Source: Pseudomonadales bacterium
GTDB taxonomy: Bacteria > Pseudomonadota > Gammaproteobacteria > Pseudomonadales > UBA7434
DNA length: 64,000 nucleotides
Reading direction: 5' to 3'
NCBI GenBank assembly: GCA_965216795.1
Contig: OZ244196.1
Coordinates: forward strand, 2,650,368-2,714,367
Part shown: piece after piece, positions 38,384 through 61,694 of the stretch
Position numbering within the stretch: the stretch's first letter is position 1
Layout: every line of letters starts with the position of its first letter
Translations under genes and position numbers: made by a program
Notes under the pieces: model-generated
Seen by the model: the letters and a program-made list of their open reading frames with translations, nothing else
Told to the model about the DNA's origin: nothing
Databases searched by the model: none

Positions 38384-40336
38384 TCAGTTTGGATCAAACC
38401 AGATAGGCGAGGTATAGGCACGTTCCTGGCCAAACTTGGGTGACTGTTCTGGCGCGGCTTCACCGAAGTGTTTCTCGTCAATGGTAGTCCATCGCGGTGT
38501 AGGAATCTCGAGTACCCTTGCGTAGTAAAACGCGCGAAGGTTTGGGTCAAAATCAGGGTCACGCCACACCACGCTCAGTGACGTGTCACCAATGGTGTTG
38601 GTATAACTGGCCGATGCGACATCGACGGTATTGCCCACCGGCTTGACCTTGTTCCGTTTGATTTTGCGACCGTCAGAAGCTGCGACGTTGTATACCTGCT
38701 CCTGGGTGTTGCCTTCGGCATCGACCCAGCCCTTGATGATCTGGATGCGATCGAGATTGGCGCCGATCGGGTCTTTCAGTGCTGAGACTATAAACGTGGG
38801 TGCCTTGTCGCCGCCCGGTGACTGGAGGGTTCCCCCCATGGGCACGCCATTGCGATAGGCATGGGTAACATAATCGTGGCGATCGACCGTGCTGTGGTCA
38901 TAGTCCCAGCCACCAAAAAAGCGCACCGTCATGCGTGGCCCGGTAGTCGCGTAGACTTCTTTGCGCTGCATCGCATCAAACAGCGCCTTGCGGGTGTTCT
39001 CGCGAGCCCAGACCGCTGCGTAGCCCGAAGATGCAGTCTCCCAGTGATGAACACTGATGCCAGAACCCGCATCGTCTTCAAAAAAGCTCTTATGCGCTCG
39101 CCCGGGCATGGGCTCGACCGACGTCATTTTGCCGAAGAAGTTATCTTCATCGCTGGTGGCAAGGCCGGTGTGCGAGTCGGTGCTGCCGATCATGCCGAAC
39201 TTGTAGGGGTTAACCCCGATTTGTTCTTCGAGCGCCAATCCATTTTTGAGCGCAGATCGCGCGTACTCAAACTCGAGCATGTTGTCTTCTTTTGCGGCCA
39301 GGAAAGACAGGTTGCTCATATCCCAGGTTTCATAATCGGCAAACTCGTCGCTGGGCGATAAAACCGGGTGTGCCTCGCCATCGCCCTTGATCTGGGTCAC
39401 CTCAATAATGGGCTCGTATTTCACGCGCAATGCGGCTTGCTCGGCGGTCAGGGGCTCGCCGGAAAAGGTGGTTTCGGCAAACATCAGGCCGTTGCTGACG
39501 TTGCCGTTGTGCGGAATCGACAGAACCCTGCCGCCGGTTGTGGATTCATAATTGGCCAGATATGCCCAGAGATCCTCCGGGTTGCCGCTATCCATTGATG
39601 AAAAGGGTACAACCTGTCCGGTTGTTTGCGCATCGTCGGCAAACAGCACATTGCGGTGCAGGTTGTTACCGCCCGGCATCGATGTGTATTCATAGCCAAT
39701 AAACGCCGTAAATGTGCCTGGCCGGTTATAGGCATCGGCCGTAGCGCCGACTTGCTTCCAGACAGACTCGACCACCGGGGCCGGTACCTCAAGGCCCTGC
39801 AGGGAGCGGATATGCTCAACGGTGATCCAGGAGCTCCCCTGGGTATAAATCTCGGGGTTTTCAGCGGTTGTTGCGCCCATGGACATGAGGCCGAACTCCA
39901 TCACAACGAGTTGGTGCTTTCCCTCGGCTACGTATTTGGCCCAGCGTTTGCCCAGGTTGGTCTCCGCGATATCGGGTGAGCCGGCAAATACCTTGGGGAA
40001 AATGCCCATAAACTCGGCGTGGTCCGACACCATCAAAAAGTCCAGTGGCCTTGCGAGTTTGGCCTTGACGCCCGTCTGGGAGGTGACCGTTTCGCCCATC
40101 GCAAAGCGATACGCATCTGCTGGCGTAATCGTGCGGTTGCCGAAGGTAAAAGCATCCGGAGACTGGTTGGTATGCAGGTGGGTATCGCCCCAAAAAACCT
40201 GGGCCGGAAAATCGTTGGCAACCGGCGGTGAGTATTCATGTTCTTTGGCCTGTGAGCCAGCCGTGGCAAGCACCAGGGCTGTAGAACACAGGAAGCTGCA
40301 AATTACTTTGATCGAACGCGCGCGCATATTAGACAT
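38384..40336 (-). CDS. Exported DUF3604 family protein (paralogue 1)
   Basis: 650 aa. Signal peptide; FWGDTHLHT metal-type motif; conserved C-terminus WRDPDFDP...YYARVLEIPTPRW...SPIW. Confidence 0.8.
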   Translation of the reverse strand: MSNMRARSIKVICSFLCSTALVLATAGSQAKEHEYSPPVANDFPAQVFWGDTHLHTNQSPDAFTFGNRTITPADAYRFAMGETVTSQTGVKAKLARPLDFLMVSDHAEFMGIFPKVFAGSPDIAETNLGKRWAKYVAEGKHQLVVMEFGLMSMGATTAENPEIYTQGSSWITVEHIRSLQGLEVPAPVVESVWKQVGATADAYNRPGTFTAFIGYEYTSMPGGNNLHRNVLFADDAQTTGQVVPFSSMDSGNPEDLWAYLANYESTTGGRVLSIPHNGNVSNGLMFAETTFSGEPLTAEQAALRVKYEPIIEVTQIKGDGEAHPVLSPSDEFADYETWDMSNLSFLAAKEDNMLEFEYARSALKNGLALEEQIGVNPYKFGMIGSTDSHTGLATSDEDNFFGKMTSVEPMPGRAHKSFFEDDAGSGISVHHWETASSGYAAVWARENTRKALFDAMQRKEVYATTGPRMTVRFFGGWDYDHSTVDRHDYVTHAYRNGVPMGGTLQSPGGDKAPTFIVSALKDPIGANLDRIQIIKGWVDAEGNTQEQVYNVAASDGRKIKRNKVKPVGNTVDVASASYTNTIGDTSLSVVWRDPDFDPNLRAFYYARVLEIPTPRWTTIDEKHFGEAAPEQSPKFGQERAYTSPIWFDPN

Positions 40337-40596: not shown

Positions 40597-42441
40597 ATGC
40601 GAACGCCGACTGGAACGCCAACAAAAGCCAAAAAATGCTACGCACGTTCATTGGAATACTCCGCTCTTATTTTTACCACGTTACTGGTTAGCGGCGCGAG
40701 CATCGCGCTAGACACCGATGGCGATGGGCTTTCGAATACCGTCGAAACCAACACGGGCACCTTTGTTTCAGCTTCCGACACCGGCAGTGATCCGGTGGTT
40801 GCAGACACCGATATCGATGATTTTAATGACGGCATTGAGGTGTCATTGGGCACCGACCCGAATTCCGCACTGAATAGCCCGCGTGAAACGCACCTTGAGC
40901 CAGCTTACCCCGAAGTCTTTGGCCGCTTTGGTTTTAGCGTCGCGGTCGATGTCGACACGTCCGGCGCTTGCCAGATAAGGTTGGGCGCTAGTAGCGGTGT
41001 TGCCCAGATTTTTACAAGAGTAGGGGCGCAATGGTTGGAGCAAGGCCAGCTATTCACTGGCGGACTGGCCACCGGCCTGTTTTGCTGGAGTATCGCTTTG
41101 TCGGGTGACAGTGCCGCGATTGGCGCTCCGGGCGATGCGACCGGAGGCGTGGTTTATATTTTTGACCGGACGGGTTCCACCTGGCCATTCACCTCGACTC
41201 CTCTCGTTCCCGGCGATTCAGCAGGTGGCGATAGCTTTGGCTATGCCGTTGACATCGATGGTGACACGCTGTTCGTGGGCGCTCCGTTTGATGATGACAA
41301 TGGCAGCGCATCGGGCTCGGTCTACGTTTTCACGCGAACCGCCGGGGTTTGGAGCGAGCAAGCCAAGATTACCGCTGGCGATGGCACTGCCAACGACAAT
41401 TTTGGTCAAGACCTTGAATTCTCGGCAGGTTCGCTGATTGTCGGTGCGCCTGGTGATTCTGATAGTGCCAGCAATGCTGGGTCAGCTTACATTTTCACCG
41501 GCTCGGGGAGCAGCTGGACACAGCAAGCGAAACTTTCAGCGAGCACGCCCGCTGCCGATGATGCCTTTGGCACTGCAGTCAGTATTTCAAGCGATAGCGT
41601 ACTGATCGGCGCTCCTGGAGATGCTGCGAATGGCGCAGGTGCAGGTGCTGCCTATGTGTTCACGGGCTCCGGTTCATCCTGGGCCCAGCAGCAAAAATTG
41701 TTGCCCGGCGACGGTGCCAGTAATGATGTGTTTGGCGATGATGTTGCGCTCTGGGGAGAGGTTGCCGTCGTTAGTGCACCCTTTGATGATGGCCCCACCG
41801 ATTCAGGTTCAGCCTATGTTTTTTTACGCTCTGGCACAGCGTGGGTGCAAATTGATAAGTTCAAGCCCGCCGCTAGTGGGCAATCCGACAATTTTGGAGA
41901 GCGAATCGCTATTGATAATGGCACTGTAGCGCTTGGCGCTCCTACGCGGCAAGGTGCAACCGGCGCAGCTTATATCGTTGATCTGGACATCGATAAAGAT
42001 GGTTTGCTTAACGCGGTAGAGAGTGGCACTGGCATATTCGTATCGCAATTCGACACGGGGACTGACCGCCTCGACGCCGACAGCGATGAAGACAACGTCA
42101 TCGACGGCGATGAAACGCAAATTCATGGCACTGACCCGAATGCCAATGATACCGATGGGGACGGCATCCTTGATGATGCCGAGATTGCAATTGGTTGGAA
42201 CCCTTTGTCAGATGACATTGATAACGATGGCCTGACCGATGCTGAAGAGTCAGGCCTTGGTACTGACCCGCTACTTGCTGACACCGACATGGATGGCATT
42301 AGCGATGGTGATGAAATCGCGAGCGGCACGGACCCACTCATAGTTGATAACGGTACAAAGAGTGTTCCAGCAATGGGTGCGATGGGTTTATTTGCATTGA
42401 TGTTGGGGTTATTGTTTCTCGGCGTGAGGGTGAAGGCTTGA
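40597..42441 (+). CDS. Exported FG-GAP beta-propeller / TSP3-repeat protein with an IPTL/PEP-CTERM-like anchor (paralogue of 29666-32335)
   Basis: 614 aa with the same repeat types (GD...FG.AV.I.GDT..VGAP.DD....SGS.YVF; DTDGDG). C-terminus [26 protein letters not shown]. Confidence 0.8.
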
Positions 42442-43276: not shown

Positions 43277-44002
43277 TCAAGAGGTTGCAGGCCTGCCGGC
43301 GCTTGCTTTGTGTCCCAGAAGTAGAAGCCATATACCCAGTACCAGATGAGTAAAAAAAGGCATAGGCACGTTCACAGGTACGGGAAGGATTTGTGCAGTC
43401 GCCTGGGTGCCCTCGGGGGTAAATGAGCGACCCCAGCCAAACCAGCTCAAGACGTTGTTTGGAACGGGTACAGCAGATCCAAAAACGGGGGCGACATCTG
43501 GATCTTGCAGAGTAAACGTGGAACCATCGAAGTGAATGCTTGAAGCAAACCAGATCGACTCGTTATTGTAAGTGAAAAAAGCGACATAGCGCAGAACATC
43601 CCACTGATTCACGCCGGCGTTGTCGCGAATGGAAAACTCGCTGTGTGACAGGTGCTGCGGCTCTCCATCAATCGTTAGCGATGTCAGCACTATCTCATAG
43701 TCATAGTGAAATGACGGCCCGCCCGTATTGGAAGAGCTGCCCTCGATCTCGGTTTCAGCCACAATCTCTAGTGAATCAACGCTCACTGAAATAGTAAAGG
43801 GTATCGAATGAGCTGGGTCGGAACTGTGGCCCGCGGGCGGCTCAGGCGTAAAAATGCCATCGTTGACATACCCGCTCCATTCGTATTGCAAAAGTCCAGC
43901 GCATGCGATGTGGCTGGCAAAGGTGAAGAGGAGCAGTACAGCTACATTTCTAAGCATGTTGCCTATTGCTGTTCCCAGCGATACAGCTTTTATTATTCTC
44001 AT
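43277..44002 (-). CDS. Hypothetical exported protein with a PEP-CTERM-like anchor
   Basis: Start probably ATG 44002 (AGGGAG RBS). The C-terminus is LPVPVNVPMPFFTHLVLGIWLLLLGHK: motif, then a hydrophobic helix. Confidence 0.5.
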   Translation of the reverse strand: MRIIKAVSLGTAIGNMLRNVAVLLLFTFASHIACAGLLQYEWSGYVNDGIFTPEPPAGHSSDPAHSIPFTISVSVDSLEIVAETEIEGSSSNTGGPSFHYDYEIVLTSLTIDGEPQHLSHSEFSIRDNAGVNQWDVLRYVAFFTYNNESIWFASSIHFDGSTFTLQDPDVAPVFGSAVPVPNNVLSWFGWGRSFTPEGTQATAQILPVPVNVPMPFFTHLVLGIWLLLLGHKASAGRPATS

Positions 44003-44152
44003 GGCCATCTCCCTGTTCATTCACCTGGTGAGTGATCCAGGATTCAAACTAAACGAACGTTACCAGGCTTTCAAGTGACTTGGCCATTGGTGTGCGGCGC
44101 TTTCCCGTGTGGTTCCTGATTGGCACATAGGCAGCACTTGTAGTCTGCCTGA

Positions 44153-44453
44153 TTCCAGCCGCAATAACCCCATGAATAGTAAAGAGATTGGTGGGTATCA
44201 GGACTTGCTACGTGCCCTGGGGGTAATCCTGGGACCTGCCGATGACTACTTGGCCCATGGCTATGAGTCCAGCGAACAATACGTATCAGTCCCCATAAGC
44301 CTAAGCAATGTGAGAGGTTATCCGAAGGGCTTAATTGAGGCTTACCCCGACCGAAACATATCCGAACCTGCTGCCTGAGATTTCCTGGCCCGAGTGTTGC
44401 TGCGCTATGGACATCAAGGTCGGGGTGGGGTGGGCTGCCGAACCTGGGCCGAA
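44153..44453 (-). repeat. attP-like repeat unit, copy A (degenerate tRNA 3'-half fragment 44189-44269 plus L and R arms)
   Basis: L arm ttccagccgcaataaccccatgaatagtaaagagat. The tRNA-like core carries two 18-nt insertions. The R arm is colinear with copies C and D, including CCGAAM pairs at 44351/44362 and 44438/44449. Confidence 0.8.
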
Positions 44454-44680
44454 CCGCGCAATCAGGATAGCATGTCGTCATCTCAACTATCGGAAGTGGC
44501 CAGGCGCACGTTAGGTAACCCGAGTCTTCAGACAGAATACTCCCCGTTTCCAGTGCGCTCACCAAAACATCATGGGGGTCACACGGCTGTGGCCGCAGCT
44601 AACTGGACTATCTGAAAAGACAGTTGATTTTCTTCGCTAAAGAAGAACAATGTAGGCTTTCGCTCGCCACGAGAGAAACT

Positions 44681-46603
44681 ATGCAAAACAACCAGCTATG
44701 CGCTGTGTGGAGCCCCAATTCCCCCTCAAGGGACGATTTCGTTCTTTTTACTGCAATGATTGTTATATCACTCAGTGTTCTACTTACTGGGTGCGAGAGG
44801 CTTGATGATCCGTCGGTCCAGCCAGGTTTCGTTCAGGGCCAGGCTGTCAAATCTATGCAGCGTACGCCCGCACCTAAAAATACACAGAGAAATCTGTACT
44901 TTGGCGATTTGCATATACATACCAGCCTGTCAACAGACGCCTATGTTTTTGGCGTTCGCTCGCAGCCTGAAGACGTCTACACCTTTGCAAAGGGCGGCGT
45001 CATTGAGCATGCAGTGGGCTATCCTATCCAGATCGACCGTCCTCTGGATTTCGCTGCGGTAACTGATCACGCCGAGTACCTGGGTCAGGCTCGTTTGGCG
45101 GGCCTTGATATACCTACGAACATGCACCCGCTGCGCGATGTGCTTGCTGGCGGCAATGTCATTAGCGTGACAAAGCAGTGGTTGATTTCCAGTGCATTTG
45201 TGCTTCGAAAAGGTGCCGGCTATGGCGTCGACGAAATTGATCTGTCTGTGAATCGCGCTGCATGGCAGCAAGTTATTAACGCCGCAGAGGCGGCTAATGT
45301 ACCGGGAGAATTTAGCGCATTTATCGGCTATGAATGGACGTCGTTTGTCGATAACAATCCGTCGATTCACATTCATCGTAACGTTATATACCGTGGCAGT
45401 GATGTGTCTGATCTGCCGTATAGTGCACTTGATAGCAACCGGCCAGAAGATCTATGGAGGTTTCTTGAGGGTGAGCAGCTCGCTGGAAAAGAAGCGATCG
45501 CTATTTCACATAATGCGAACATTAGCGCCGGCAATATGTACTCGGTCGTGGATAGTGACGGGGAGCCGTTAACCGACGCATATGCACGATTGAGGAATCG
45601 CTATGAGCCAATTAGCGAGATCCTGCAGATCAAGGGCGCCTCAGAGACGCACCCGATGATGTCGAATCTCGATGAGTTCGCAAGCTTTGAGCTGCTGTCC
45701 AACAGTCCACCGGAAGACCAGCTGCAAGGCTCATACGCACGCAGCGGCTTGCGTCTTGGTCTGGAAACTTCAGCCCGGCAGGGATTTAACCCGTATCAAT
45801 TCGGTGTGATAGGGTCCAGTGACAGCCATAATGCCAGCTCTCCTTCTCAGGAGAATCGTTATCATGGCAAGCTGCCCGTGCTGGATGGAACCGCTGGCTT
45901 GCGCACCAACAAAGCACTGCTAATACCTGAGTTGATCAACCCCGCTATGCGCTGGGGATCGGGAGGGCTGGCAGCAGTTTGGGCGGAAGAGAACACGCGC
46001 GGTGCTGTGTTTGATGCGCTACGCCGCCGTGAGTGCTATGCAACCTCGGGTCCCAGAATCAGTGTGAGGCTATTTGGTGGCTGGCAGTATACCCAGGCCA
46101 TGCTTGACACTGGGAATGTTATTGAACAAGCCTACAAGCACGGTGTTCCAATGGGTGGGCAGCTGGGCCCAGCACCCAAAGACGGTGCCCCGACCTTTAT
46201 GATTATCGCGGCAAAAGACCCTGAAGGCGCAAACCTTGACCGTGTGCAGATTATTAAAGCGTGGGTCGATTCTGTCGGTGAGAGTCACGAAAAAGTTTAC
46301 GACGTGGCCGCAGCCGGTGGGCGGACAGTGAGCAAAGAGACAGGAAAACTAGAGCCTGTGGGTAACACGGTTGACGCAGCTGAGGCTAGCTACAGTAATA
46401 CAATCGGTGCGGCTTCGCTGGCGGCGATTTGGCGAGACCCTGATTTCGATGTGTCCAGTGAAGCTGTTTACTATGCGCGGGTCATCGAAATTCCCACGCC
46501 ACGATGGTCGACATACGATGCTAAATTGTTAGGCGATGAACCTATGAATCCAGCGTGGATTCAGGAGCGTGCCATTACATCGGCGATCTGGTATTCGCCT
46601 TGA
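44681..46603 (+). CDS. Exported DUF3604 family protein (paralogue 2; lipoprotein-like)
   Basis: YFGDLHIHT motif and C-terminus WRDPDFD...YYARVIEIPTPRW...SAIWYSP. Possible lipobox LLTGC. Start uncertain: TTG 44624, ATG 44681 or ATG 44756. Confidence 0.8.
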   Translation: MQNNQLCAVWSPNSPSRDDFVLFTAMIVISLSVLLTGCERLDDPSVQPGFVQGQAVKSMQRTPAPKNTQRNLYFGDLHIHTSLSTDAYVFGVRSQPEDVYTFAKGGVIEHAVGYPIQIDRPLDFAAVTDHAEYLGQARLAGLDIPTNMHPLRDVLAGGNVISVTKQWLISSAFVLRKGAGYGVDEIDLSVNRAAWQQVINAAEAANVPGEFSAFIGYEWTSFVDNNPSIHIHRNVIYRGSDVSDLPYSALDSNRPEDLWRFLEGEQLAGKEAIAISHNANISAGNMYSVVDSDGEPLTDAYARLRNRYEPISEILQIKGASETHPMMSNLDEFASFELLSNSPPEDQLQGSYARSGLRLGLETSARQGFNPYQFGVIGSSDSHNASSPSQENRYHGKLPVLDGTAGLRTNKALLIPELINPAMRWGSGGLAAVWAEENTRGAVFDALRRRECYATSGPRISVRLFGGWQYTQAMLDTGNVIEQAYKHGVPMGGQLGPAPKDGAPTFMIIAAKDPEGANLDRVQIIKAWVDSVGESHEKVYDVAAAGGRTVSKETGKLEPVGNTVDAAEASYSNTIGAASLAAIWRDPDFDVSSEAVYYARVIEIPTPRWSTYDAKLLGDEPMNPAWIQERAITSAIWYSP

Positions 46604-46622
46604 GGTCAAAAGTTGCCATCGA

Positions 46623-46722
46623 CTCCAGCCGCAATGACCCTATGAATAGTAAAGAGAATGGTGGGCCCACCAGGACTTGCTACGTGCCCTCGGGGTAAAC
46701 CTGGGACCTGCCGATTATGAGT
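46623..46722 (-). repeat. attP-like repeat unit, copy B (L arm + tRNA 3'-half fragment; R arm missing)
   Basis: ctccagccgcaatgaccctatgaatagtaaagagaa, then the tRNA 3' half with the 18-nt T-loop insertion (46680-46697). Homology stops abruptly after ...gattatgagt. Confidence 0.85.
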
Positions 46723-46932
46723 AATTAGCCTACCGTATTTACTGAGATTGATCTACGTTGATTTAGATCGATATTGGAATCAATTCAATCACTTGGTCTT
46801 TTACCTGGGTCTATCCAGGTTGATACAGATTGATTTCATCTGCTTACATAGCGCTTACACGCATTTGATAATATGTCTGCCCAATTTGATATACGCCAAC
46901 CGGTACTTGAACTATAATTCTTGGTGTGATAT

Positions 46933-49245
46933 ATGCTGGGTGCGCGCGCTACTCTGCTCAGCCATAACAAAAAGGAGATAATCTCGCTCAGGATTATGCC
47001 GATGCCCCAGATCTTAAGAAAAGACCTTTATCTTAAATTTAGACTTCAGCGCGTCTTGGTGTCAGGAGTGTTAAAAGTTCTAGCAGGCTTATATTGTCTT
47101 GCACTCCAGCACGCAGCCATAGCGGCTGCGCTCGACCCCGACGACTTTACCTCACTGGGGACGCTTAACCTGGCGAGTGGCGATTACACTTTTGATACCA
47201 CGGCGATGACGATCGTTGAAAACAGCGCGCCAGGCACCGTACTGTTTACCGGTGTTGAGGACGACCAGAACGGTCAGGCCGACAGCTTTGCGGGTGGTAG
47301 CGATACAGTAGGTGTTAATGGCATTCCACATATCGCAGTCTTTACCTTTGATGACATCAACATTGATGGGACCAACAGTATTACCATCACCGGTAATCGA
47401 GCTATTGCGCTGTTATCAAAGAGCAATTTCTATCTGGATGAAACGCTATCGGTGGATGCCGTGCCGGCCCCTGCCCCAGATGCGCCGGAAGCGCAGTTTG
47501 GTGGCAAAGCTGGCCCTGGCGGCTTTGACGGCGGTACGCCCGGCATCAACAATGGCGATGGTGAGGGGCCAGGTGGCGCGCTTGGCAATGATGGTTTTAC
47601 TGGCGCACACGGCGCAAGTGGAGGATTCGGTGGTGATGGGGTTGGCCCCTTGCCAGGCCTATTAGGCATGTCCTACGGTGATCTGCTGCAAGCACTGCAA
47701 GGTGGAAGTGGCGGCGGTGATAGCGATGATTTTTTGACCCCTGAAAATCGAGGCCCCGGTGGTGGTGGTGGTGGCGCGATCATGCTGGTTGCCAGCCAGG
47801 CAATAACCATCGACAGCAATGGCGTTGTCAGCGCACAAGGAGCGGATGGTTACCAGCGAGAACCCCCCTCCATACCGGGGTTTACAGGATTATACGGGGG
47901 TGGCGGTAGTGGTGGTGGGATTATCCTGTCGGCACTAAACGTAGTCATTAACGGCCAGCTATTAGCAAAAGGGCTCGACGGCAGCGGTACTTACACTGGC
48001 GGTGGTGGCCGTGTGTTGGTCGCAGGCTATAACAGCTTCCTGTTCGGTAGCACGCCTGACGTCAACAGTTTTATCGCCAATATCGACGTCGACCCTCCTT
48101 TTGCATCCGCTGAGGGCGGATGGATTTCTGTGGTGCCTCGCACAACACTCGTCTCATTTGGCGAGTCGCTGGCACTTAACAACGCAACCATTCAGATTCA
48201 GGGCAACATCGGAGCTCCCGGTGTCGAATTCATACCAGGCAACCTTGTTGCAACAGGCGAGCTTACCGTGCCTGCTGGAGGCACGAGCTACGCGTTTGAC
48301 ATTAGCCTTACCGGTCCAACCGAAACCACCGTTATTAACGGCAACGATCCGCTACAAATCCAGACGTCGCTATCAGGTTCCGGCACGGTCAACGTACCAC
48401 TGGTGATCGACGCCGATGCCGAGCTGAATATGGTTAATGATGAGCTCACCTTTCAGGGCGACGGCATTGCCAACGACGACGGGCTGGTAAACAACGGCAC
48501 CATGAACCTGATCAACGCAATTATCAATGGTGATGTACGCTCACCGGCTGGGTCACAGATAAACGTTGCAGGTAGTGCGACATTTAACGGCCTGTTTTCA
48601 GGTGCCGGTACATTTTCGGGCACTAGCAACCTGGTCACCTTTAACGGCGGCTACTCACCCGGTGATAGCCCTGCGGCTATTAACTTTGGTGGCGATGTGT
48701 CGTTGAGTTCAGGGAACACGCTGCTGATGGAGATCTTCGGCAGCGTTGCGGGCAGTGGTTACGACCAGCTCACTGTTGCCGGTAACCTGGCAATGAATGG
48801 CGTGATCGATTTATTTGTTGATCCGCTGTTAACACTCAACGCGGGCGACAGCTTTACTTTGCTCAACTGGAGCTCGGTCGCAGGCGAGTTTGCATCGGTG
48901 CTTGGCATTCAACAAGCAAATGATCTGGACATCGGTATTCGTTATAACGCCGGCAATATGGTGGCTAAGGTTGTGCCGCGTGGTGACGTGAATGATGACG
49001 GCGTTGTTAACGGTGATGACCTGGCGATTATTGCCAGCAATGCAGGCGTGAACACAAGCAGCTACTTTAGCGGCGACGTAAACGGCGATGGCGTGGTCGA
49101 TAATTCCAGCAATTCTGGCTCAGACCGATCGTTAGTCGAGGCGGCTATTCTCAATGCGAATACCCAAACTGTACCTCTGCCTTTCTGGCTGCCATTGATA
49201 CTGTTGATGGGCGCTACCATTACGTATAGGTTGAGTGCCCGGTGA
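46933..49245 (+). CDS. Large exported glycine-rich (beta-helix-like) protein with dockerin-like Ca-binding repeats and a VPLP-type C-terminal anchor
   Basis: 770 aa. Gly-rich blocks (GGFGGDG, GPGGGGGGAIML, GGGGSGGGIIL). GDVNDDGVVNGDDL and GDVNGDGVVDN dockerin/EF-hand-like repeats. C-terminus TVPLPFWLPLILLMGATITYRLSAR. Start uncertain (46933 or 46996). Confidence 0.65.
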   Translation: MLGARATLLSHNKKEIISLRIMPMPQILRKDLYLKFRLQRVLVSGVLKVLAGLYCLALQHAAIAAALDPDDFTSLGTLNLASGDYTFDTTAMTIVENSAPGTVLFTGVEDDQNGQADSFAGGSDTVGVNGIPHIAVFTFDDINIDGTNSITITGNRAIALLSKSNFYLDETLSVDAVPAPAPDAPEAQFGGKAGPGGFDGGTPGINNGDGEGPGGALGNDGFTGAHGASGGFGGDGVGPLPGLLGMSYGDLLQALQGGSGGGDSDDFLTPENRGPGGGGGGAIMLVASQAITIDSNGVVSAQGADGYQREPPSIPGFTGLYGGGGSGGGIILSALNVVINGQLLAKGLDGSGTYTGGGGRVLVAGYNSFLFGSTPDVNSFIANIDVDPPFASAEGGWISVVPRTTLVSFGESLALNNATIQIQGNIGAPGVEFIPGNLVATGELTVPAGGTSYAFDISLTGPTETTVINGNDPLQIQTSLSGSGTVNVPLVIDADAELNMVNDELTFQGDGIANDDGLVNNGTMNLINAIINGDVRSPAGSQINVAGSATFNGLFSGAGTFSGTSNLVTFNGGYSPGDSPAAINFGGDVSLSSGNTLLMEIFGSVAGSGYDQLTVAGNLAMNGVIDLFVDPLLTLNAGDSFTLLNWSSVAGEFASVLGIQQANDLDIGIRYNAGNMVAKVVPRGDVNDDGVVNGDDLAIIASNAGVNTSSYFSGDVNGDGVVDNSSNSGSDRSLVEAAILNANTQTVPLPFWLPLILLMGATITYRLSAR

Positions 49246-49340
49246 AGCCGACAGGTTTGTTGGCGCTCGAGCTGAGCGGGCGATAAAAGTAATCAGTTCA
49301 GGACAGTCTTGGCCGTATTGATCCCTGAGGGTACGCCAGA

Positions 49341-49575
49341 TTGAAAAATGAATGGTGGGCCCACCAGGACTTGCTACGTGCCCTCGGGGTAAACCTGGGA
49401 CCTGCCGATTATGAGTCCAGCGAACAATACGTGCCCATCTCCATAAGTCTAAGAAGTGGGAGGGGTTATCGGCGGGGTATCTCTGGGGCTTTCTTCGACC
49501 GAACCATATCCGAACCTGTCGCCTTGAGAGTCGCGTGCCTGAGTGTCACCCCGCTGAGGGCATGTGGCCGAAGGC
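49341..49575 (-). repeat. attP-like repeat unit, copy C (truncated L arm + tRNA 3'-half fragment 49353-49417 + R arm)
   Basis: tRNA 3' half with the 18-nt insertion (49374-49391). The R arm is colinear with A and D, with a ~20-nt internal deletion near its end. Confidence 0.85.
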
Positions 49576-49790
49576 TCTCTCATTCTCCTAAGTTGTTGAT
49601 ATCCTGGGCTAATTAACTCCTTCCCCATCCCCTGAGATTGCCTCAGAAGCAGCATTGGCTGCGTCCTGCAGCGTGCCAGTGGACAGGTGAGTCGACTGCT
49701 GTACGCCTGTTGGCTACATATTGACGGCTAGCTGCGAATTGAAGATACTGGTTGCACCCCTTGGCTCCGAATGACAACGGAGCACCTCCC

Positions 49791-50504
49791 ATGCCTGCCA
49801 CTAACGTGCCTGCGTCCATTACGGTTGTTAGACAGGCGAGCCCGATTTTCTTGAGCGCCCAGCTGCTGCGCAGGGACTTCCTGGCGATTTTGCTGCTTGT
49901 GAATGTCTCGATGGCGCAGGCGTATGTTGAAGCGCCGCGCGTGATGTCTGCCCAATTGACAACGTATCAGTCCAGTATCAGTTATCTGATACACAATGAT
50001 TCGGATTGGCTTCTGGACCAGCTCGGTATGCAGTTTGCTGGCGTCCTGCCACTGGGCACCTATGCACTCGATTTATCTTATGATTGGGATTCGTTGCGCG
50101 ATATCTATGATGATGATCCCACATTCGATGAGATCATGGGCCCCCAGTGGGATCTTTTCGTCAGGTTTTGGTTCGATTCTCGTGATGATCCTCTCTATCC
50201 CGGTGAGTCTTTCACCCTGACGATCGATTTCAATAGCGCATTGCTGGCTGCAGAATATGGTGTTACGGATATCAGGCAGCTGAACACTGCTTTCTACTCC
50301 GGAGTGCTGGGCGGTTCTAACGCAGAGCATGGCGTTGAAACCCCTGTCGAGTTGCTGGAGGTGCCGGTGTTCCCAGAGCGTATCGTCGTCCCTCTGCCGG
50401 GGTCTTTCGGATTGCTACTTGCCCCGATGTGTCTTTTGGTTTACCTGCGGCGCCCATGGAGTCGGGCGCACCGCTCACAGAGTCGGCTGCTCCAGCCGCA
50501 ATAA
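49791..50504 (+). CDS. Hypothetical exported protein with a VPLP-type (PEP-CTERM-like) anchor
   Basis: Start at ATG 49791 (GGAG RBS). C-terminus VVPLPGSFGLLLAPMCLLVYLRRPW. The stop codon lies inside the L arm of repeat D. Confidence 0.55.
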   Translation: MPATNVPASITVVRQASPIFLSAQLLRRDFLAILLLVNVSMAQAYVEAPRVMSAQLTTYQSSISYLIHNDSDWLLDQLGMQFAGVLPLGTYALDLSYDWDSLRDIYDDDPTFDEIMGPQWDLFVRFWFDSRDDPLYPGESFTLTIDFNSALLAAEYGVTDIRQLNTAFYSGVLGGSNAEHGVETPVELLEVPVFPERIVVPLPGSFGLLLAPMCLLVYLRRPWSRAHRSQSRLLQPQ

Positions 50505-50757
50505 CCCTATGAATAGCAAAGAGATTGGTGGGCCCACCAGGACTTGAACCTGGGACCTGCCGATTATGAGTCCAGCGAACAATAAGAACCCGTCTTCATA
50601 AGTCCAAGAAATGGGAGGGGTTATCCCGGAGCCCTCATTAGGGTTCACGCCGACCGAACCATATCCGAACCTGTCGCCTTGAAAAACGCTCGCCCGAGTG
50701 TCACTGGGCTATGGGCATCAAGGCTGGGGAGGGGAGGGTTGCCGAAACTGGACCGAA
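50489..50757 (-). repeat. attP-like repeat unit, copy D (L arm + exact tRNA 3' 47 nt at 50526-50572 + full R arm)
   Basis: The 47-nt core is identical to the tRNA gene 3' end, with no insertion. CCGAAM pairs at 50654/50665 and 50742/50753. Confidence 0.9.
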
Positions 50758-50793
50758 ATTCGAGAGGTATTCTGTGGATAGGGCCATGTTAGA

Positions 50794-51432
50794 TTATTTC
50801 TTTTCTGCAGAAAGTATGGATACAACCGTCTCAATCATTACAGAAATAAATGTGTCTCGATACCTTTTGTCGTTTTCAGGCGACTCTTGAATTAGTGCAC
50901 AGTAGTCGGCAAGGTTGGTGACTACCAAATTTCGAATGGTGCGATACCGAATAGTTTTTTCAGTCTCTGGTACCCCTTCTAAGCTGTTTGATAGCAGCGC
51001 ACTTAAATCTGATAAAGATGAGTAGGAGCGTTGGTCTTCAGATTCTACCGGATTCATCTGGTGCCCATCCATGAGCGCGAGTATCCGCAAGTAGGCTCTT
51101 CCATCATCTTTGTTGTCCAGTTCACCTATCAGCGGTAATAAAAGTACCTTGGCCGTTTCTTCCAGGCTAGGTGTTGGGCCGAAGACATTCAACAGTTTCT
51201 GCCGGCGTTGCTCTATACCTGATCTGTGCTTATCAAAAATGGCCTGTAAGAGGCCGGCCTTGTTCTCGAAGTGGTAATTGAGTGCGGACGCATTGCGCTG
51301 ACCAGAGGCTTTCACAATTTCATTCATTGACACGGCGTCAATGCCACGTGCAGCCATTAGCTTCATTGCGGTACGCAGAATTTTGGCCTTGGTCTGTCTG
51401 GCGGCTTCTTCCTTTTTGCAATTCATTGGCAT
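50794..51432 (-). CDS. TetR family transcriptional regulator (low-GC islet)
   Basis: 212 aa with a TetR HTH (KILRTAMKLMAARGIDAVSMNEIVKASGQRNASALNYHF). Confidence 0.8.
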   Translation of the reverse strand: MPMNCKKEEAARQTKAKILRTAMKLMAARGIDAVSMNEIVKASGQRNASALNYHFENKAGLLQAIFDKHRSGIEQRRQKLLNVFGPTPSLEETAKVLLLPLIGELDNKDDGRAYLRILALMDGHQMNPVESEDQRSYSSLSDLSALLSNSLEGVPETEKTIRYRTIRNLVVTNLADYCALIQESPENDKRYRDTFISVMIETVVSILSAEKK

Positions 51433-51468
51433 ACCAGGTCCGATTACATTAAATCCAGCTTTATTGAT

Positions 51469-51515
51469 AATGAAGTCTCATTATAATAACCTACCAAAAT
51501 TAATGAGATCTCATT
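51469..51515. promoter_or_regulatory. Two copies of a 14-bp palindrome (candidate TetR operators) in the divergent promoter
   Basis: aatgaagtctcatt (51469-51482) and the perfect palindrome aatgagatctcatt (51502-51515), 33 bp apart, between the TetR and MBL genes. Confidence 0.5.
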
Positions 51516-51632
51516 AGAATATTCATGGGTAGATGGTGGCGTAAGCCATTGAAATAATAAGGTTTATCGGTTTTGGGCCTGGGTTCATATCCTGAAGCCA
51601 CACAGTTGACGACATATATTGAGGCAATAGTT

Positions 51633-53015
51633 ATGCGGCAGTTAGTGCAATTCACAGCGGTAATTTTTGGTTCTCTGCTGGTAATCAATGCTATGGCTGG
51701 TTCGGGCGTCGATGTCCATTCCGAAGAGTACCAGAATGTGCGTGTTCCCAAGGACTTCAATGGCCGCGCTAGTGACATCATGCTCTATAAGCCGAAGTTG
51801 GAAAAGATTAGCGATGAAGTCTATGTCGCGTCTGGTACGGGTAATGCGTTTCTGGTGAAAACGCCGGAAGGGAATGTTATTTTTGATACAGGCGTCCCCT
51901 GGCAAGGGGAGGCGCTTAGGGAACTTCTGCTTTTCGTTGGTCATGAAAAAACGACACATATTATTGTTTCACATGCGCACGGTGATCATATGGGCGGGCT
52001 CACGGCCTGGCAGCAGGAGATCAATGATGGCGCTGAAATTATCGCGCATAGTCGTTATCCATATACCAACAAGATATACGGGGATACCGATGTTTATCTA
52101 TGGCAACAACGAACGGCATCTATTTACCCATCACCGGGGACGGGGGCTGCAGAAATGGTTCGACAGGCTAGGGCGATCGAGCCGACCCGTTTGGTTTATC
52201 CAGACCATGACTACAGCTTTACTGTTGGCGGTGTAGAGTTTGTTGTCATCGCTATGCAGGGAGGCGCAGAAGGTGAAGATAACCTGGTACTTTGGTTGCC
52301 GGAGCAGGAAGTTGCTTTTACTGGCGATTTGTTCGGCCCCCTGTATCCTATGGTGCCAAACTTGTACACAGTGCGGGGTGAAAAGCTGAGAGATCCGCTG
52401 GCCTACATTGACGCGCTTGATCGAATGATAGAGCTTGAGCCTAGTATCATGCTCCCGAGCCATTTCGGTGCTGTTAAAGGGAAAAACTATATCCACAAAT
52501 CGCTGACTGTGACTCGTGACGGGACAGAATATGTCTACAAAGAAACTGTTAAGGGGATGAACGAAGGTAAGAGTGTCTACGAGTTGATGGAATCTGTACG
52601 GCTTCCTGAATCACTTGAAATCAGCCAGGGACATGGAAAGACGTCCTGGAATGTTAGGGCAATTTGGGAATTGCTAGCGGGTTGGTTTTACTTTGATACC
52701 GTTGCTGACCTGTACTCTGTTCCTGTCAGTGCTGTTTACGCCGACATTGTTGAGCTTGTAGATGGCCCAGACAAGCTGATTGCTAGCGCTGAAAGATATG
52801 CTTCAGAAGGCGACAACCTTAAGGCAATCAGGCTATTGGATATAGCTCAGGGCGCCGGACAGGAAACTACGGATGCCATCAAATTACGTGTAAAACTTTA
52901 CTCTGCACTTATTGAGGAGTCTAAAGATACGCACAGCAATGTCAGTTTGGATGATATTCTCGAGGCGGCGTTGAGGTCATCAAATGCTGAATTGAAAAAA
53001 CGTGCTGACAAGTAA
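51633..53015 (+). CDS. Exported MBL-fold metallo-hydrolase, alkyl/aryl-sulfatase-like
   Basis: Start at ATG 51633 (GAGG RBS; signal MRQLVQFTAVIFGSLLVINAMA). HAHGDHMGG metallo-beta-lactamase motif. Helical C-terminal domain reminiscent of the alkyl-sulfatase dimerisation region. Confidence 0.65.
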   Translation: MRQLVQFTAVIFGSLLVINAMAGSGVDVHSEEYQNVRVPKDFNGRASDIMLYKPKLEKISDEVYVASGTGNAFLVKTPEGNVIFDTGVPWQGEALRELLLFVGHEKTTHIIVSHAHGDHMGGLTAWQQEINDGAEIIAHSRYPYTNKIYGDTDVYLWQQRTASIYPSPGTGAAEMVRQARAIEPTRLVYPDHDYSFTVGGVEFVVIAMQGGAEGEDNLVLWLPEQEVAFTGDLFGPLYPMVPNLYTVRGEKLRDPLAYIDALDRMIELEPSIMLPSHFGAVKGKNYIHKSLTVTRDGTEYVYKETVKGMNEGKSVYELMESVRLPESLEISQGHGKTSWNVRAIWELLAGWFYFDTVADLYSVPVSAVYADIVELVDGPDKLIASAERYASEGDNLKAIRLLDIAQGAGQETTDAIKLRVKLYSALIEESKDTHSNVSLDDILEAALRSSNAELKKRADK

Positions 53016-53177: not shown

Positions 53178-53254
53178 TGGTGGGCCCACCAGGACTTGAA
53201 CCTGGGACCTGCCGATTATGAGTCGGATGCTCTAACCAACTGAGCTATGGGCCC
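53178..53254 (-). tRNA. tRNA with anticodon CAU (Met or, more likely, lysidine-type Ile2)
   Basis: 77-nt cloverleaf read by hand: GGGCCCA-TA-GCTC-AGTTGGTTA-GAGC-A-TCCGA-CTCATAA-TCGGC-AGGTC-CCAGG-TTCAAGT-CCTGG-TGGGCCC-ACCA. C4 and C5 in the acceptor stem match the remembered E. coli ileX. Confidence 0.9.
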
Positions 53255-59795: not shown

Positions 59796-61694
59796 TCAGC
59801 GTGGGGCGGCCTGCTGGCTGGCCTGGTACCAGATCGGCGAACTCCAGGCCCGCTCCTGGATCGTCCGCTGGAGCTGGCTGGATTGGCACCAGTTGGGCAG
59901 TTTTGCCCGCTCTTCGGCCGATTTGCCGGCGCTGGTGCAGGCCCAGTCGGTGCTGCGACAGCTGGGGTTCTCCACCACCCGGGCGTAGTAGACCGCGTCC
60001 TGGGCGGGGTCGAAATCGGGGTCGCGCCACAGCGTGCACAGGCGGGCGTGGCCGGGGCCGCGGGGCTTGCAGCTGTCCAGGTCGACACTGGCCTTATTGG
60101 GCCCGCCGGCGATATCGATCACCTGCTGGTGCAGCTGGCCATCGCTGTCGGTCCAGCCCTTGATGATCTGGGCCCGCTGCAGCGCCGTGCCCGGATGTCG
60201 GGGCGTGCCTGGGTCCTGGCTGGCGACCAGCAGGAACTGCGGCGCCTGGTCTGCGAGCGTTCCGGCATCGAGCTTGCCGCCCATCGGCACGCCATCGCGG
60301 TAGGCCCCGGCCAGCCAGTCACTGCGGGCGCAGCTGTCGCTCTCGAACGAGGGGCCGGCGAACAGGCGCAGGGCAATGCGCGGCCCGCTGGTGCCATAGG
60401 CCTCGCGACGGCGCATTGCATCAAACAGTGAGGCGCGCGAATTCTCCTCGGCCCAGACCGCCACCAGGCCGCCGTTGTTGCGACCCTGGCGCGGGTTAGG
60501 TTGGTTGCCCGGCAGGTCGCGGCGCCACTCCTCGACGCTGCCCGGCGTCGCATCGTGGGTATCGGTCGAGGCGATAAAGCCCAGCTGGAAGGGGTTGATG
60601 CCCAGTCGCTGCTGTTCTTTGAGGCCCTCAAGCAGGGCATAGCGCGCAAAGTCCTGGGTCGCCACGCAGCCTTCATCCAGCAGCGAACCCACGCCCGTAT
60701 TGCGTTGGCACTGCTCGGTATCCGGCAGGCGCAGCTTTTCAAAGTTGCACAACTCGTCGTTGCCGCCGAGCACATTCCACATGCCGTTGCGACACTCAGA
60801 GTCGCCTTTCATCTGCATCATTTCAACCAGGGGCTCGATACGGGCACGCAGCGCCGCCAGTTCGCGCTGGGCGTCGATATCCAGTGCCGGGTCAGGCACA
60901 GTCGTAAACAGGTTGCCGTTCGACAGGTTGGGGTTGTGGGGAATCGCCAGCACGTCGCAGCCGTTGTCGGCATCCATGCATTCATCGCGCAATCGCTGCC
61001 AAAGCACGGTCTCATCCGGTTCGTCGTTATAGCTGATCGGCCGCTCGATCACGGTCTCGTTCTTGAAAATGACGTTGCGGTGGATCTTGGTCAGCTCGGG
61101 GTTGGCGGTGTACTCGTAGGCGACAAAGGTTGAAAACGCACAGCTGTCGGTCTCGTCCTGGTGGCGGGCCGCCGCAGCCTGGATCTGCTGCCAAATCTGC
61201 AGCTCGACATCGCGGCACAGCGCGCCGTCTTTGCCGCATACCTCGGCGTTCGACAGTCGGCCGCCGGTCTGCTCCACCATCCGCCGGACGATTTCCTTGA
61301 CGTTCTTGGCACCGCGCAGATCGACCGGGCTGCGAAAGCGCTCGCAGGTTTCGCTGCTGTAGGCGGGGCTGTCCGGGTCGGCGCACAGCCGGGTGGCGCC
61401 CGCATCCGAGGCGTGGTCGGTGGTGGCGGCAAAGTCCAGCGCGCGTTCCAGCTGCACGCTGTGCGCGCCGGGCTTCAGTGCAATGGCTTCGCCTTTGGCG
61501 AAGCGATAGGCATCGTCCGGGGTATTGCGGGTGCCAAAGGTCCAGGCGTCCATCGACAGCGCGGTATGGACATGCAGGTCGCCCCAGAACAGCTGGCGCA
61601 GCGGCTCATGATCGGCGCAGCGCGGGTCTGCTGCAAAGGCTTTGACTTGGCATACAATGGCCAGCAGGATGGGCAGGCTATGGCGCGGCAGCAT
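59796..61694 (-). CDS. Exported DUF3604 family protein (paralogue 3)
   Basis: 632 aa. Signal peptide; LFWGDLHVHT motif; C-terminus WRDPDFDP..DAVYYARVVENP...SSPIWY. Confidence 0.8.
   Translation of the reverse strand: MLPRHSLPILLAIVCQVKAFAADPRCADHEPLRQLFWGDLHVHTALSMDAWTFGTRNTPDDAYRFAKGEAIALKPGAHSVQLERALDFAATTDHASDAGATRLCADPDSPAYSSETCERFRSPVDLRGAKNVKEIVRRMVEQTGGRLSNAEVCGKDGALCRDVELQIWQQIQAAAARHQDETDSCAFSTFVAYEYTANPELTKIHRNVIFKNETVIERPISYNDEPDETVLWQRLRDECMDADNGCDVLAIPHNPNLSNGNLFTTVPDPALDIDAQRELAALRARIEPLVEMMQMKGDSECRNGMWNVLGGNDELCNFEKLRLPDTEQCQRNTGVGSLLDEGCVATQDFARYALLEGLKEQQRLGINPFQLGFIASTDTHDATPGSVEEWRRDLPGNQPNPRQGRNNGGLVAVWAEENSRASLFDAMRRREAYGTSGPRIALRLFAGPSFESDSCARSDWLAGAYRDGVPMGGKLDAGTLADQAPQFLLVASQDPGTPRHPGTALQRAQIIKGWTDSDGQLHQQVIDIAGGPNKASVDLDSCKPRGPGHARLCTLWRDPDFDPAQDAVYYARVVENPSCRSTDWACTSAGKSAEERAKLPNWCQSSQLQRTIQERAWSSPIWYQASQQAAPR

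Follow-up and report, generated by a model that had tools for sequence, protein, structure and literature searches.

An 18-nt repeat inserted in displaced tRNA fragments of a gammaproteobacterial islet array, a candidate very small REP-like element

The 64,000-nt stretch of contig OZ244196.1 analyzed here (the window) contains one intact tRNA gene and, in a row beside it, four displaced copies of its 3' half (copies A to D, copy A being the most distant from the gene). Copies A, B and C carry the same 18-nt insertion, hereafter the unit, in the remnant of the T-loop, and copy A carries a second 18-nt insertion in the remnant of the anticodon loop. The explanation favored here, with some reserve, is that a very small repeat, similar to repetitive extragenic palindromes (REPs), inserted into these dead attachment (att) remnants at a later stage, with gene conversion perhaps carrying it from one remnant to another. 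To our knowledge, insertions inside displaced tRNA fragments have not been described so far.

The live tRNA gene, with anticodon CAT and no insertion, was located on the minus strand at 53178-53254 and was the only tRNA gene found in the window by ARAGORN and Rfam (tRNA, 73 bits). The direct repeats of its 3' half lie on the same strand and extend in every case from the 5' edge of the anticodon loop to CCA. Copy D (50526-50571), identified by repeat search and alignment, is identical to the live gene and has no insertion. Copy C (49353-49416) and copy B (46659-46722) each contain the 18-mer, and copy A (44189-44268) is degenerate, with a mutated acceptor and T-stem, including one change in the 5' strand of the T-stem, and two insertions. 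The sequence of the unit is CTACGTGCCCT(C/G)GGGGTA. Pattern search with CTACGTGCCCTSGGGGTA gave exactly three matches in the window, compared to 0.08 expected from dinucleotide shuffles. On the plus strand these are 46680-46697 in copy B and 49374-49391 in copy C, both CTACGTGCCCTCGGGGTA, and 44208-44225 in copy A, the loop variant CTACGTGCCCTGGGGGTA with G at position 12. An initial annotation, made from the sequence alone, had placed the 18-mer in copies A, B and C between GGACTTG and AACCTGG and had reported its absence from copy D and the live gene; alignment and pattern search agreed on both points. The insertion point corresponds to tRNA positions 55/56 in the T-loop, and an alignment artefact can be set aside, as the five-copy alignment allows no other register and copies B and C are identical over 67 nt. 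When the full tRNA was given the 18-mer, the T-arm was lost in the predicted fold. The unit would thus inactivate a tRNA, as the annotation had also proposed, and the live gene and copy D are free of it.

The second insertion of copy A, for which alignment bore out the reported position (44244-44261, GACTACTTGGCCCATGGC), is found between GCCGAT and TATGAGT at tRNA positions 37/38. A loose resemblance between the two insertions had been pointed out and is real, although modest. With the frame moved two bases rightward (44246-44263, CTACTTGGCCCATGGCTA; the feature as a whole spans 44244-44263 on the plus strand) 12/18 bases are identical to the first unit, and matches of at least 12 bases have a background of about 2.5e-4 per window position. 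The six differences fall on the spacer base, on the three bases of the loop and on both partners of one stem pair, the latter a compensatory change (C8:G16 to G8:C16). CTAC followed by one base, a 5-bp stem and a 3-nt loop had one other match in 128 kb (both strands); this structural pattern was defined after the data were seen and is supporting, not conclusive. Taken in this way, the comparison supports the view that the second insertion may be a diverged member of the same unit family.

An orthologous site without the unit was found on a 2796-nt metagenome scaffold (L054), which is 85.5% identical at the nucleotide level to 46881-49417 of the window and encodes a homologue, 87% identical, of the 770-aa protein located between copies B and C. 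Downstream of this gene the left flank of copy C is repeated almost base for base, followed by TGGTGGGCCCACCAGGACTTGAACCTGGGACCTGCCGATTATGAGTCGGATGCTC. The tRNA site of the scaffold (2742-2796) reads TGGTGGGCCCACCAGGACTTG directly joined to AACCTGG...TATGAGTCGGATGCTC. It contains no 18-mer and extends 9 nt past the fragment boundary into the 5' half of the tRNA. Because in this close relative the same gene and the same flank are joined to an intact, insertion-free tRNA, copy C is a displaced and formerly live 3' half, which two later islets would have separated from the 5' half of the gene. The comparison also shows that the copy C site was without the insertion in its ancestral state. For copy B no orthologous empty site was obtained; its best DUF3604 homologue is only 65% identical, and the contig (L055) is without a tRNA fragment.

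The 67-nt identity of copies B and C (46656-46722 in copy B, with three flank bases) includes base -1 before the tRNA end. In copy C this base is native, as it is also present in L054; in copy B it departs from the flank type of that copy, for which the chance estimate is about 0.03. The block points to gene conversion between fragments as its probable source. A gradient was observed along the array: copy A is degenerate and has two insertions, copies B and C have one each, and copy D and the live gene have none. Copy A may record separate and older events, in view of its second unit and of the G variant, which is also the variant seen in Woeseiaceae.

The 18-mer was searched on two strands and in two variants in one genome per species, 185,579 species and 596 Gb in total, and 40 matches were obtained, compared to about 35 estimated by chance under uniform base composition. 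Several genomes contained more than one copy. Nine exact copies were found, in 8-kb samples, in a metagenome-assembled genome (MAG) of Woeseiaceae, four in a Thiotrichales MAG, with a fifth match in a second Thiotrichales MAG, and three each in a gammaproteobacterial MAG and one further MAG. Seven Woeseiaceae copies occur in one context, a first REP type in which the unit is preceded by GTAGGAGCGGC and followed by TTCCAGCCGCGA, and the uninterrupted GTAG-1-like REP, GTAGGAGCGGCTTCCAGCCGCGA, is present in the same loci. In a second Woeseiaceae REP type, seen in two MAGs (L016, L039), the G variant is present in the opposite orientation. In the Thiotrichales MAG tandem copies and copies within other small palindromes were seen, and in two Luteimonas MAGs the unit is contained in a repeat typical of the group. 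Variation between copies falls mainly on the three loop bases (TCG, TGG, CCG, TTG, CAT) and the ends, and the sole stem change is the compensatory one of the second insertion. The initial annotation had treated the 18-mer as a feature of one variant att site and had missed this dispersal in other Gammaproteobacteria. The check that it had suggested, for tRNA fragments with the 18-mer in other genomes, gave none, as none of the 40 matches was in a T-loop context. No insertion of 1-30 nt in this T-loop was found in the metagenome scan either, nothing was found in viral contigs, and a literature search for the 18-mer sequence gave no match.

Some further arrangements of the unit were observed. 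In Thiotrichales (the contig end of L007, L024 and L040) the unit forms head-to-tail tandems (CTACGTGCCCTCGGGGTG CTACGTGCCCTCGGGGTA) with degenerate 18-nt relatives adjacent. Since a 455-codon stop-free frame spans the unit in L040, some copies may lie inside genes; the length of a stop-free frame is uninformative on the coding status of single matches in GC-rich genomes. In the JAOTYE01 MAG (L023, L026, L037) the unit is directly adjacent to one or the other end of a repeat about 115 nt long (CTTCATGGCTCGG...GCGCTTTACTTCCGRTGA), similar to miniature inverted-repeat transposable elements. The CGATGA that precedes the unit in L037 is also the hexamer preceding the second unit of copy A in the window (GCCGATGA followed by CTAC).

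The unit can be drawn as a 5' CTAC tag followed by a 5-bp stem with one G-T pair and a 3-nt loop. The family can be written approximately as CTAC-N-TGsCC-NNN-GGsTA and would be REP-like and weakly hairpin-forming; it is present in several orders of marine Gammaproteobacteria. Filled and empty sites can be compared in three settings: the orthologous pair of copy C and L054, the paralogous copies A, B and C against copy D and the live gene, and the Woeseiaceae REP with and without the unit. Nesting in palindromes is clear for the T-arm, the two Woeseiaceae REP types, L008, L007 and L040. The unit would be an unusually small and unusually widely shared kind of REP-like or small dispersed repeat, belonging to none of the named families.

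A history of the locus can be proposed in which the order of integration events follows from the anatomy of the array and from general knowledge of tRNA-targeting islands. Islets without an integrase would have integrated one after another at the 3' half of the tRNA gene, giving a tandem array. With each crossover at the anticodon loop, the tRNA would be restored from the incoming att site and the previous 3' half pushed outward as a dead fragment. The unit would not belong to this att site; one member of its family would have landed in the T-arm loop of a fragment that was already displaced and no longer under selection. Entry after displacement is preferred because an anticodon-loop crossover with a unit-bearing att site would put the unit into the live tRNA and destroy its T-arm. 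The same position in copies A, B and C could be due to gene conversion between fragments or to repeated hits on one site. No copy of the unit was found outside the fragments in the window or in about 250 kb of relatives' loci, and three independent hits on the same bond are therefore unlikely and copying is favored. Selection would keep the live tRNA free of the unit, and copy D, as the youngest fragment, would not have been reached. The second, diverged family member would have landed in the remnant anticodon loop of copy A, the oldest fragment. The mover could be a transposase of the HUH or REP-associated tyrosine transposase (RAYT) type, acting on single-stranded DNA.

Several observations weigh against secondary entry of a REP-like repeat. 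The hairpin is weak (-1.3 kcal/mol as DNA) and no better than that of shuffled sequence. The tag is on the side opposite to canonical GTAG REPs, with CTAC 5' of the hairpin and, on the GTAG strand, the tag 3'. Most of the single genome matches are expected by chance, and many are homologous coding sites. An enclosing palindrome of at least 5 bp was present in 8/18 independent contexts, compared to 23% of control positions, which is a weak enrichment. The absence of the unit from the rest of the window and from the relatives' loci also makes it rare in this clade, and no transposase was identified among the window's open reading frames (ORFs) of at least 200 aa. Finally, the empty site of L054 is also compatible with arrival of the unit in the attP site of the next element, followed by crossover 3' of the T-loop.

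This last possibility is the alternative with most in its favor, although it was considered rather unlikely. The 18-mer would be carried in the attP site of the incoming islets, with strand exchange in the 21-nt segment that separates the T-loop from CCA. Every such insertion would then end up in the displaced fragment and none in the live tRNA, and copies A, B and C would be independent hits on the live gene. The 18-mer is indeed always contiguous with the right part of the fragment and, in copies A and C, also with the conserved right-hand arm (P' arm) described below. Crossover is known to occur at the junction of T-stem and acceptor (PMC4383910), the 14 nt of the acceptor end, TGGTGGGCCCACCA, form a perfect palindrome, and L054 fits as stated. 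However, the identity block reaches the anticodon loop, both here and in a related locus (L051), and for tRNA-targeting integrases a block of this extent is normally the sign of crossover in that loop (PMC4383910). This alternative would also leave the 25 nt to the right of the insertion without a function, yet they are 100% tRNA-like in copies B and C. Furthermore, copy B has the insertion but an unrelated right flank, and in other genomes the unit is independent of any att site. No such attP site was found in the scans, a result that is uninformative, as no relative of the arms turned up at all.

The initial annotation had proposed a single variant att site with the insertion, from which unequal crossing-over or recombination among pseudo-att sites, and not integration at the live gene, would have produced the bearing copies. 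The same position and the nearly identical sequence in three copies agree with this proposal, and the 67-nt block of copies B and C, with its base -1, suggests transfer between copies. As an account of how the copies themselves arose it is improbable. Unequal crossing-over would have duplicated the DNA between the fragments, but the genes of the four intervals are unrelated and the copies differ in their left or right flanks. For copy C, orthology of the fragment and its left flank to an intact, insertion-free tRNA 3' half in L054 contradicts both the descent from a variant site and the claim that the distal copies did not come from hits on the live gene. Only a weaker form survives, in which the 18-mer was copied between existing fragments; exchange among pseudo-att sites fits to that extent, and not for the generation of the copies.

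A by-product of the recombinase, by which aberrant strand exchange or repair at the T-loop and anticodon loop inserted extra DNA, was judged very improbable. Positions 55/56 and 37/38 do lie in known crossover subsites (PMC4383910), and within the 64 kb the unit is confined to att remnants. Such a by-product would not, however, share 18 bases with REP-embedded copies in Woeseiaceae, Thiotrichales and other genomes, and the copies elsewhere are apparently never near att sites.

Position 37/38 is the canonical intron site of archaeal tRNA genes, and 18 nt, the size of the second insertion at that position, is within the range of small archaeal introns. Archaeal bulge-helix-bulge introns were nevertheless rejected, as the host is bacterial, the insertions are present only in truncated fragments, no bulge-helix-bulge motif is formed and the cloverleaf is lost in the predicted fold; an assembly or sequencing artefact deserves as little credit, given three copies with one variant base, a source contig of 3.4 Mb and the presence of the unit, with loop variants, in independent assemblies.

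If the unit is a REP-like repeat, its closest known counterparts are the GTAG-tagged REPs and the REPINs (Di Nocera et al. 2013, PMC3733652; Bertels and Rainey 2011, PMC3116915), with which it would have in common a short GC-rich stem-loop with one G-T pair, a loop of 3 nt and, at one end, the tetranucleotide GTAG/CTAC left unpaired. In GTAG-tagged REPs the stem measures 5-13 bp and the loop 2-3 nt, G-T pairs occur, and some REP families are located inside other palindromes (PMC3733652), as the unit is nested in the Woeseiaceae GTAG-1-like REP. Like these repeats, the unit is dispersed in gammaproteobacterial genomes and occurs singly, in tandem or beside other repeats. Unlike them, it is only 18 nt long, its 5-bp stem is at the lower limit described, and its copy number is low: the richest MAG has about 10 exact copies, and in this window all copies lie in att remnants. 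Furthermore, a REP family is usually confined to one genus or species, whereas the sequence of the unit is common to several orders.

Small dispersed repeats of cyanobacteria (Nostocales), which Elhai and coworkers are said to have described in 2008, are reportedly 21-27 nt long and present in hundreds of copies. They resemble the unit in being very small hairpins whose mobility is seen from filled and empty sites, in their nesting and in having no known enzyme. The unit differs from them in its 18 nt, its occurrence in Gammaproteobacteria and its few copies. Insertion into the loop or stem of a palindromic repeat also recalls the REP-targeting insertion sequences IS1397/ISKpn1 and those of the IS1111 type (cited in PMC3116915, refs 41-42). 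These are full insertion sequences, about 1-1.5 kb long and with a transposase gene, in contrast to the unit with its 18 nt and no coding capacity.

In a more far-reaching interpretation, which we consider doubtful, the unit is a genuine mobile element, one of the smallest on record, that is moved in trans by a conserved enzyme across several gammaproteobacterial orders and prefers the single-stranded loops of extruded palindromes, such as REP hairpins, tRNA T-arms and pseudo-anticodon arms. A conserved enzyme acting in trans would explain the exact sequence conservation of the unit. The dead att sites would then be traps that record its activity, and its insertion would disrupt both the recombinase core and the direct repeats and so lock islets into the chromosome. 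The known size limit of non-autonomous mobile DNA in bacteria would be lowered. A REP-like family across distant orders would be unusual and would point to a conserved or horizontally moving enzyme.

As regards genomic islands, the array shows that displaced tRNA fragments are not inert markers. Such fragments can gain insertions, which here break up the repeat and in copy A also the presumed crossover loop. Interrupted repeats should block later excision and thereby fix the cargo genes in place. Island-mapping tools that expect tRNA fragments without gaps would overlook ends of this kind or put them in the wrong place.

Also of interest is the array as such, which consists of cassettes of one or two genes with conserved arms and without an integrase. 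An intact tRNA gene and same-orientation repeats of its 3' part here bound DNA of lower GC content, as in an island array; the GC content is 0.46-0.56 across the island at about 38-53 kb and about 0.60 in the backbone. The fragments separate four islets of 1.1-2.6 kb, in which the following genes were found, unrelated between intervals. A DUF3604 protein (44624-46603, plus strand; Pfam E=1e-203) is encoded between copies A and B, and the 770-aa secreted protein with a PEP-CTERM-like tail (46933-49245, plus strand), the homologue of which on L054 is beside the intact tRNA, between copies B and C. Pfam scans showed a 250-aa protein with a PEP-CTERM-like tail (49752-50504, plus strand) between copies C and D, and a TetR regulator (minus strand) together with a protein similar to metallo-beta-lactamases and alkyl-sulfatases (plus strand) between copy D and the live tRNA (50794-53015). 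No integrase, recombinase, transposase or RAYT was detected by Pfam among ORFs of at least 200 aa in the islets or in the rest of the window. No further tRNA fragments were found by sensitive BLAST to the left of copy A.

Islands that target tRNA genes have displaced fragments at their ends, and crossover is commonest in the anticodon loop, the other subsites being the T-loop and the junction of T-stem and acceptor (PMC4383910). On this model every fragment of the array, taken with the flank on its left, would once have been a live 3' half. As in the tandem islands of the Islander collection, the tRNA is regenerated, repeats starting at the anticodon loop mark the ends, and the array grows outward from the live gene. 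Of the 3919 islands in that collection, which is restricted to integrase-bearing islands, three or more lie in one array in just 4 cases (PMC4383910). In contrast to its members, the islets described here are only 1.1-2.6 kb, hold one or two genes and have no integrase, and four fragments in a row are rare.

The left-hand arm (P arm), about 38-45 nt to the left of the fragment, is common to copies A (44151-44188), B (46621-46658, from flank alignment) and D (50488-50525), all on the plus strand, and is partly present in the live gene. In copy A its outer part resembles half of a REP (TTCCAGCCGCAAT), and in copy D it contains the hairpin CGGCTG-CTC-CAGCCG. Over a slightly wider range (44140-44165 and 50475-50500) the outer part of the left arm was observed to be similar to GTAG-type REPs, as GTAGTCTGCCTGATTCCAGCCGCAAT in copy A and as the hairpin in copy D, and a clear GTAG REP (GTAGATAGTGGTGGGCTTCAGCCCGCCAGCGA) is present at 190-225 of L054, upstream of the gene for the 770-aa protein. 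REP systems therefore exist in this clade.

The P' arm, 150-190 nt to the right of the fragment, is common to copies A (44269-44455), C (49417-49563) and D (50572-50757), again on the plus strand, and the right flank of copy B is unrelated. It contains pairs of the motif CCGAA[AC]: two pairs with 11-nt spacing in copy A, two CCGAAC pairs with the same spacing in copy D, and one CCGAAC pair (49499-49515) in copy C. In copies A (44351-44454) and D (50654-50758) about 87 nt separate the pairs. Nine of the 15 exact CCGAAC motifs on the plus strand of the window are located inside P' arms, and the tenth arm motif, in copy A, is CCGAAA. These pairs look like arm-type recombinase binding sites, putatively of integrase-less cassettes, and the array recalls a cassette system built on a tRNA gene, for which an integrase would act in trans. 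Searches for relatives of the arms with the junction pattern and the CCGAAC arm pattern in viral contigs, and with the arm pattern in metagenome contigs, gave no match, and an integrase-bearing parent element of the islets was not found in these scans. In the P' arm of copy C, TACGTGCCC at 49428-49436, located 37 nt downstream of the unit, has the same 9 nt as positions 2-10 of the 18-mer. Copies A and D differ at this site, and the match may be a coincidence (estimated p about 0.01) or a trace of exchange.

The palindrome at the 3' end of the tRNA (53178-53191) precedes a T-rich run, and its 14 nt recur unchanged in copies B, C and D. A terminator scan flagged the palindromic 3' end in every copy. 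From this similarity to a terminator, each fragment may still terminate transcription of the upstream cargo gene.

ARAGORN called the live tRNA as Met. Its best matches in E. coli are, however, annotated as tRNA-Ile (82-83% identity), and the gene is located downstream of dnaG-rpoD-PALP, a position similar to that of ileX, which is likewise downstream of rpoD. Because of these matches and this position, the gene is most likely tRNA-Ile2(CAU), modified with lysidine, and not tRNA-Met. The genes to the right of the live tRNA, encoding a PALP enzyme, rpoD and dnaG, are bacterial, and sigma-70 RpoD, DnaG and TetR were all recognized by Pfam. RpoD has a 100% identical counterpart encoded on a 3.4-Mb contig. 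The host is a Cellvibrionales-like gammaproteobacterium, the next RpoD relatives of which (85-87%) are marine Cellvibrionales, Pseudomonadales and Halieaceae-type Gammaproteobacteria. In one of these (L051, RpoD 87%) a 6.6-kb island of polyamine genes without an integrase occupies the same tRNA, and its bounding repeat starts at the same tRNA position. In other relatives (L041-L050, 13.0-18 kb) the stretch just downstream of the same tRNA was observed to be hypervariable between strains of related species; it contains ParDE, large proteins of 800-1200 aa and DHOR/Lipoprotein_15 proteins, and no tRNA fragments. In L053 a large serine recombinase directly adjoins the tRNA.

Proteins with FG-GAP/TSP3 repeats are encoded twice in the window (29666-32335 and 40597-42441), and PEP-CTERM-like tails are present on the proteins encoded at 43277-44020, 46933-49245 and 49752-50504. 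These repeats and tails suggest that the island collects secreted or surface proteins. Three DUF3604 paralogues are found in the 64 kb (38384-40336, 44624-46603 and 59796-61694), one of which is the cassette cargo.

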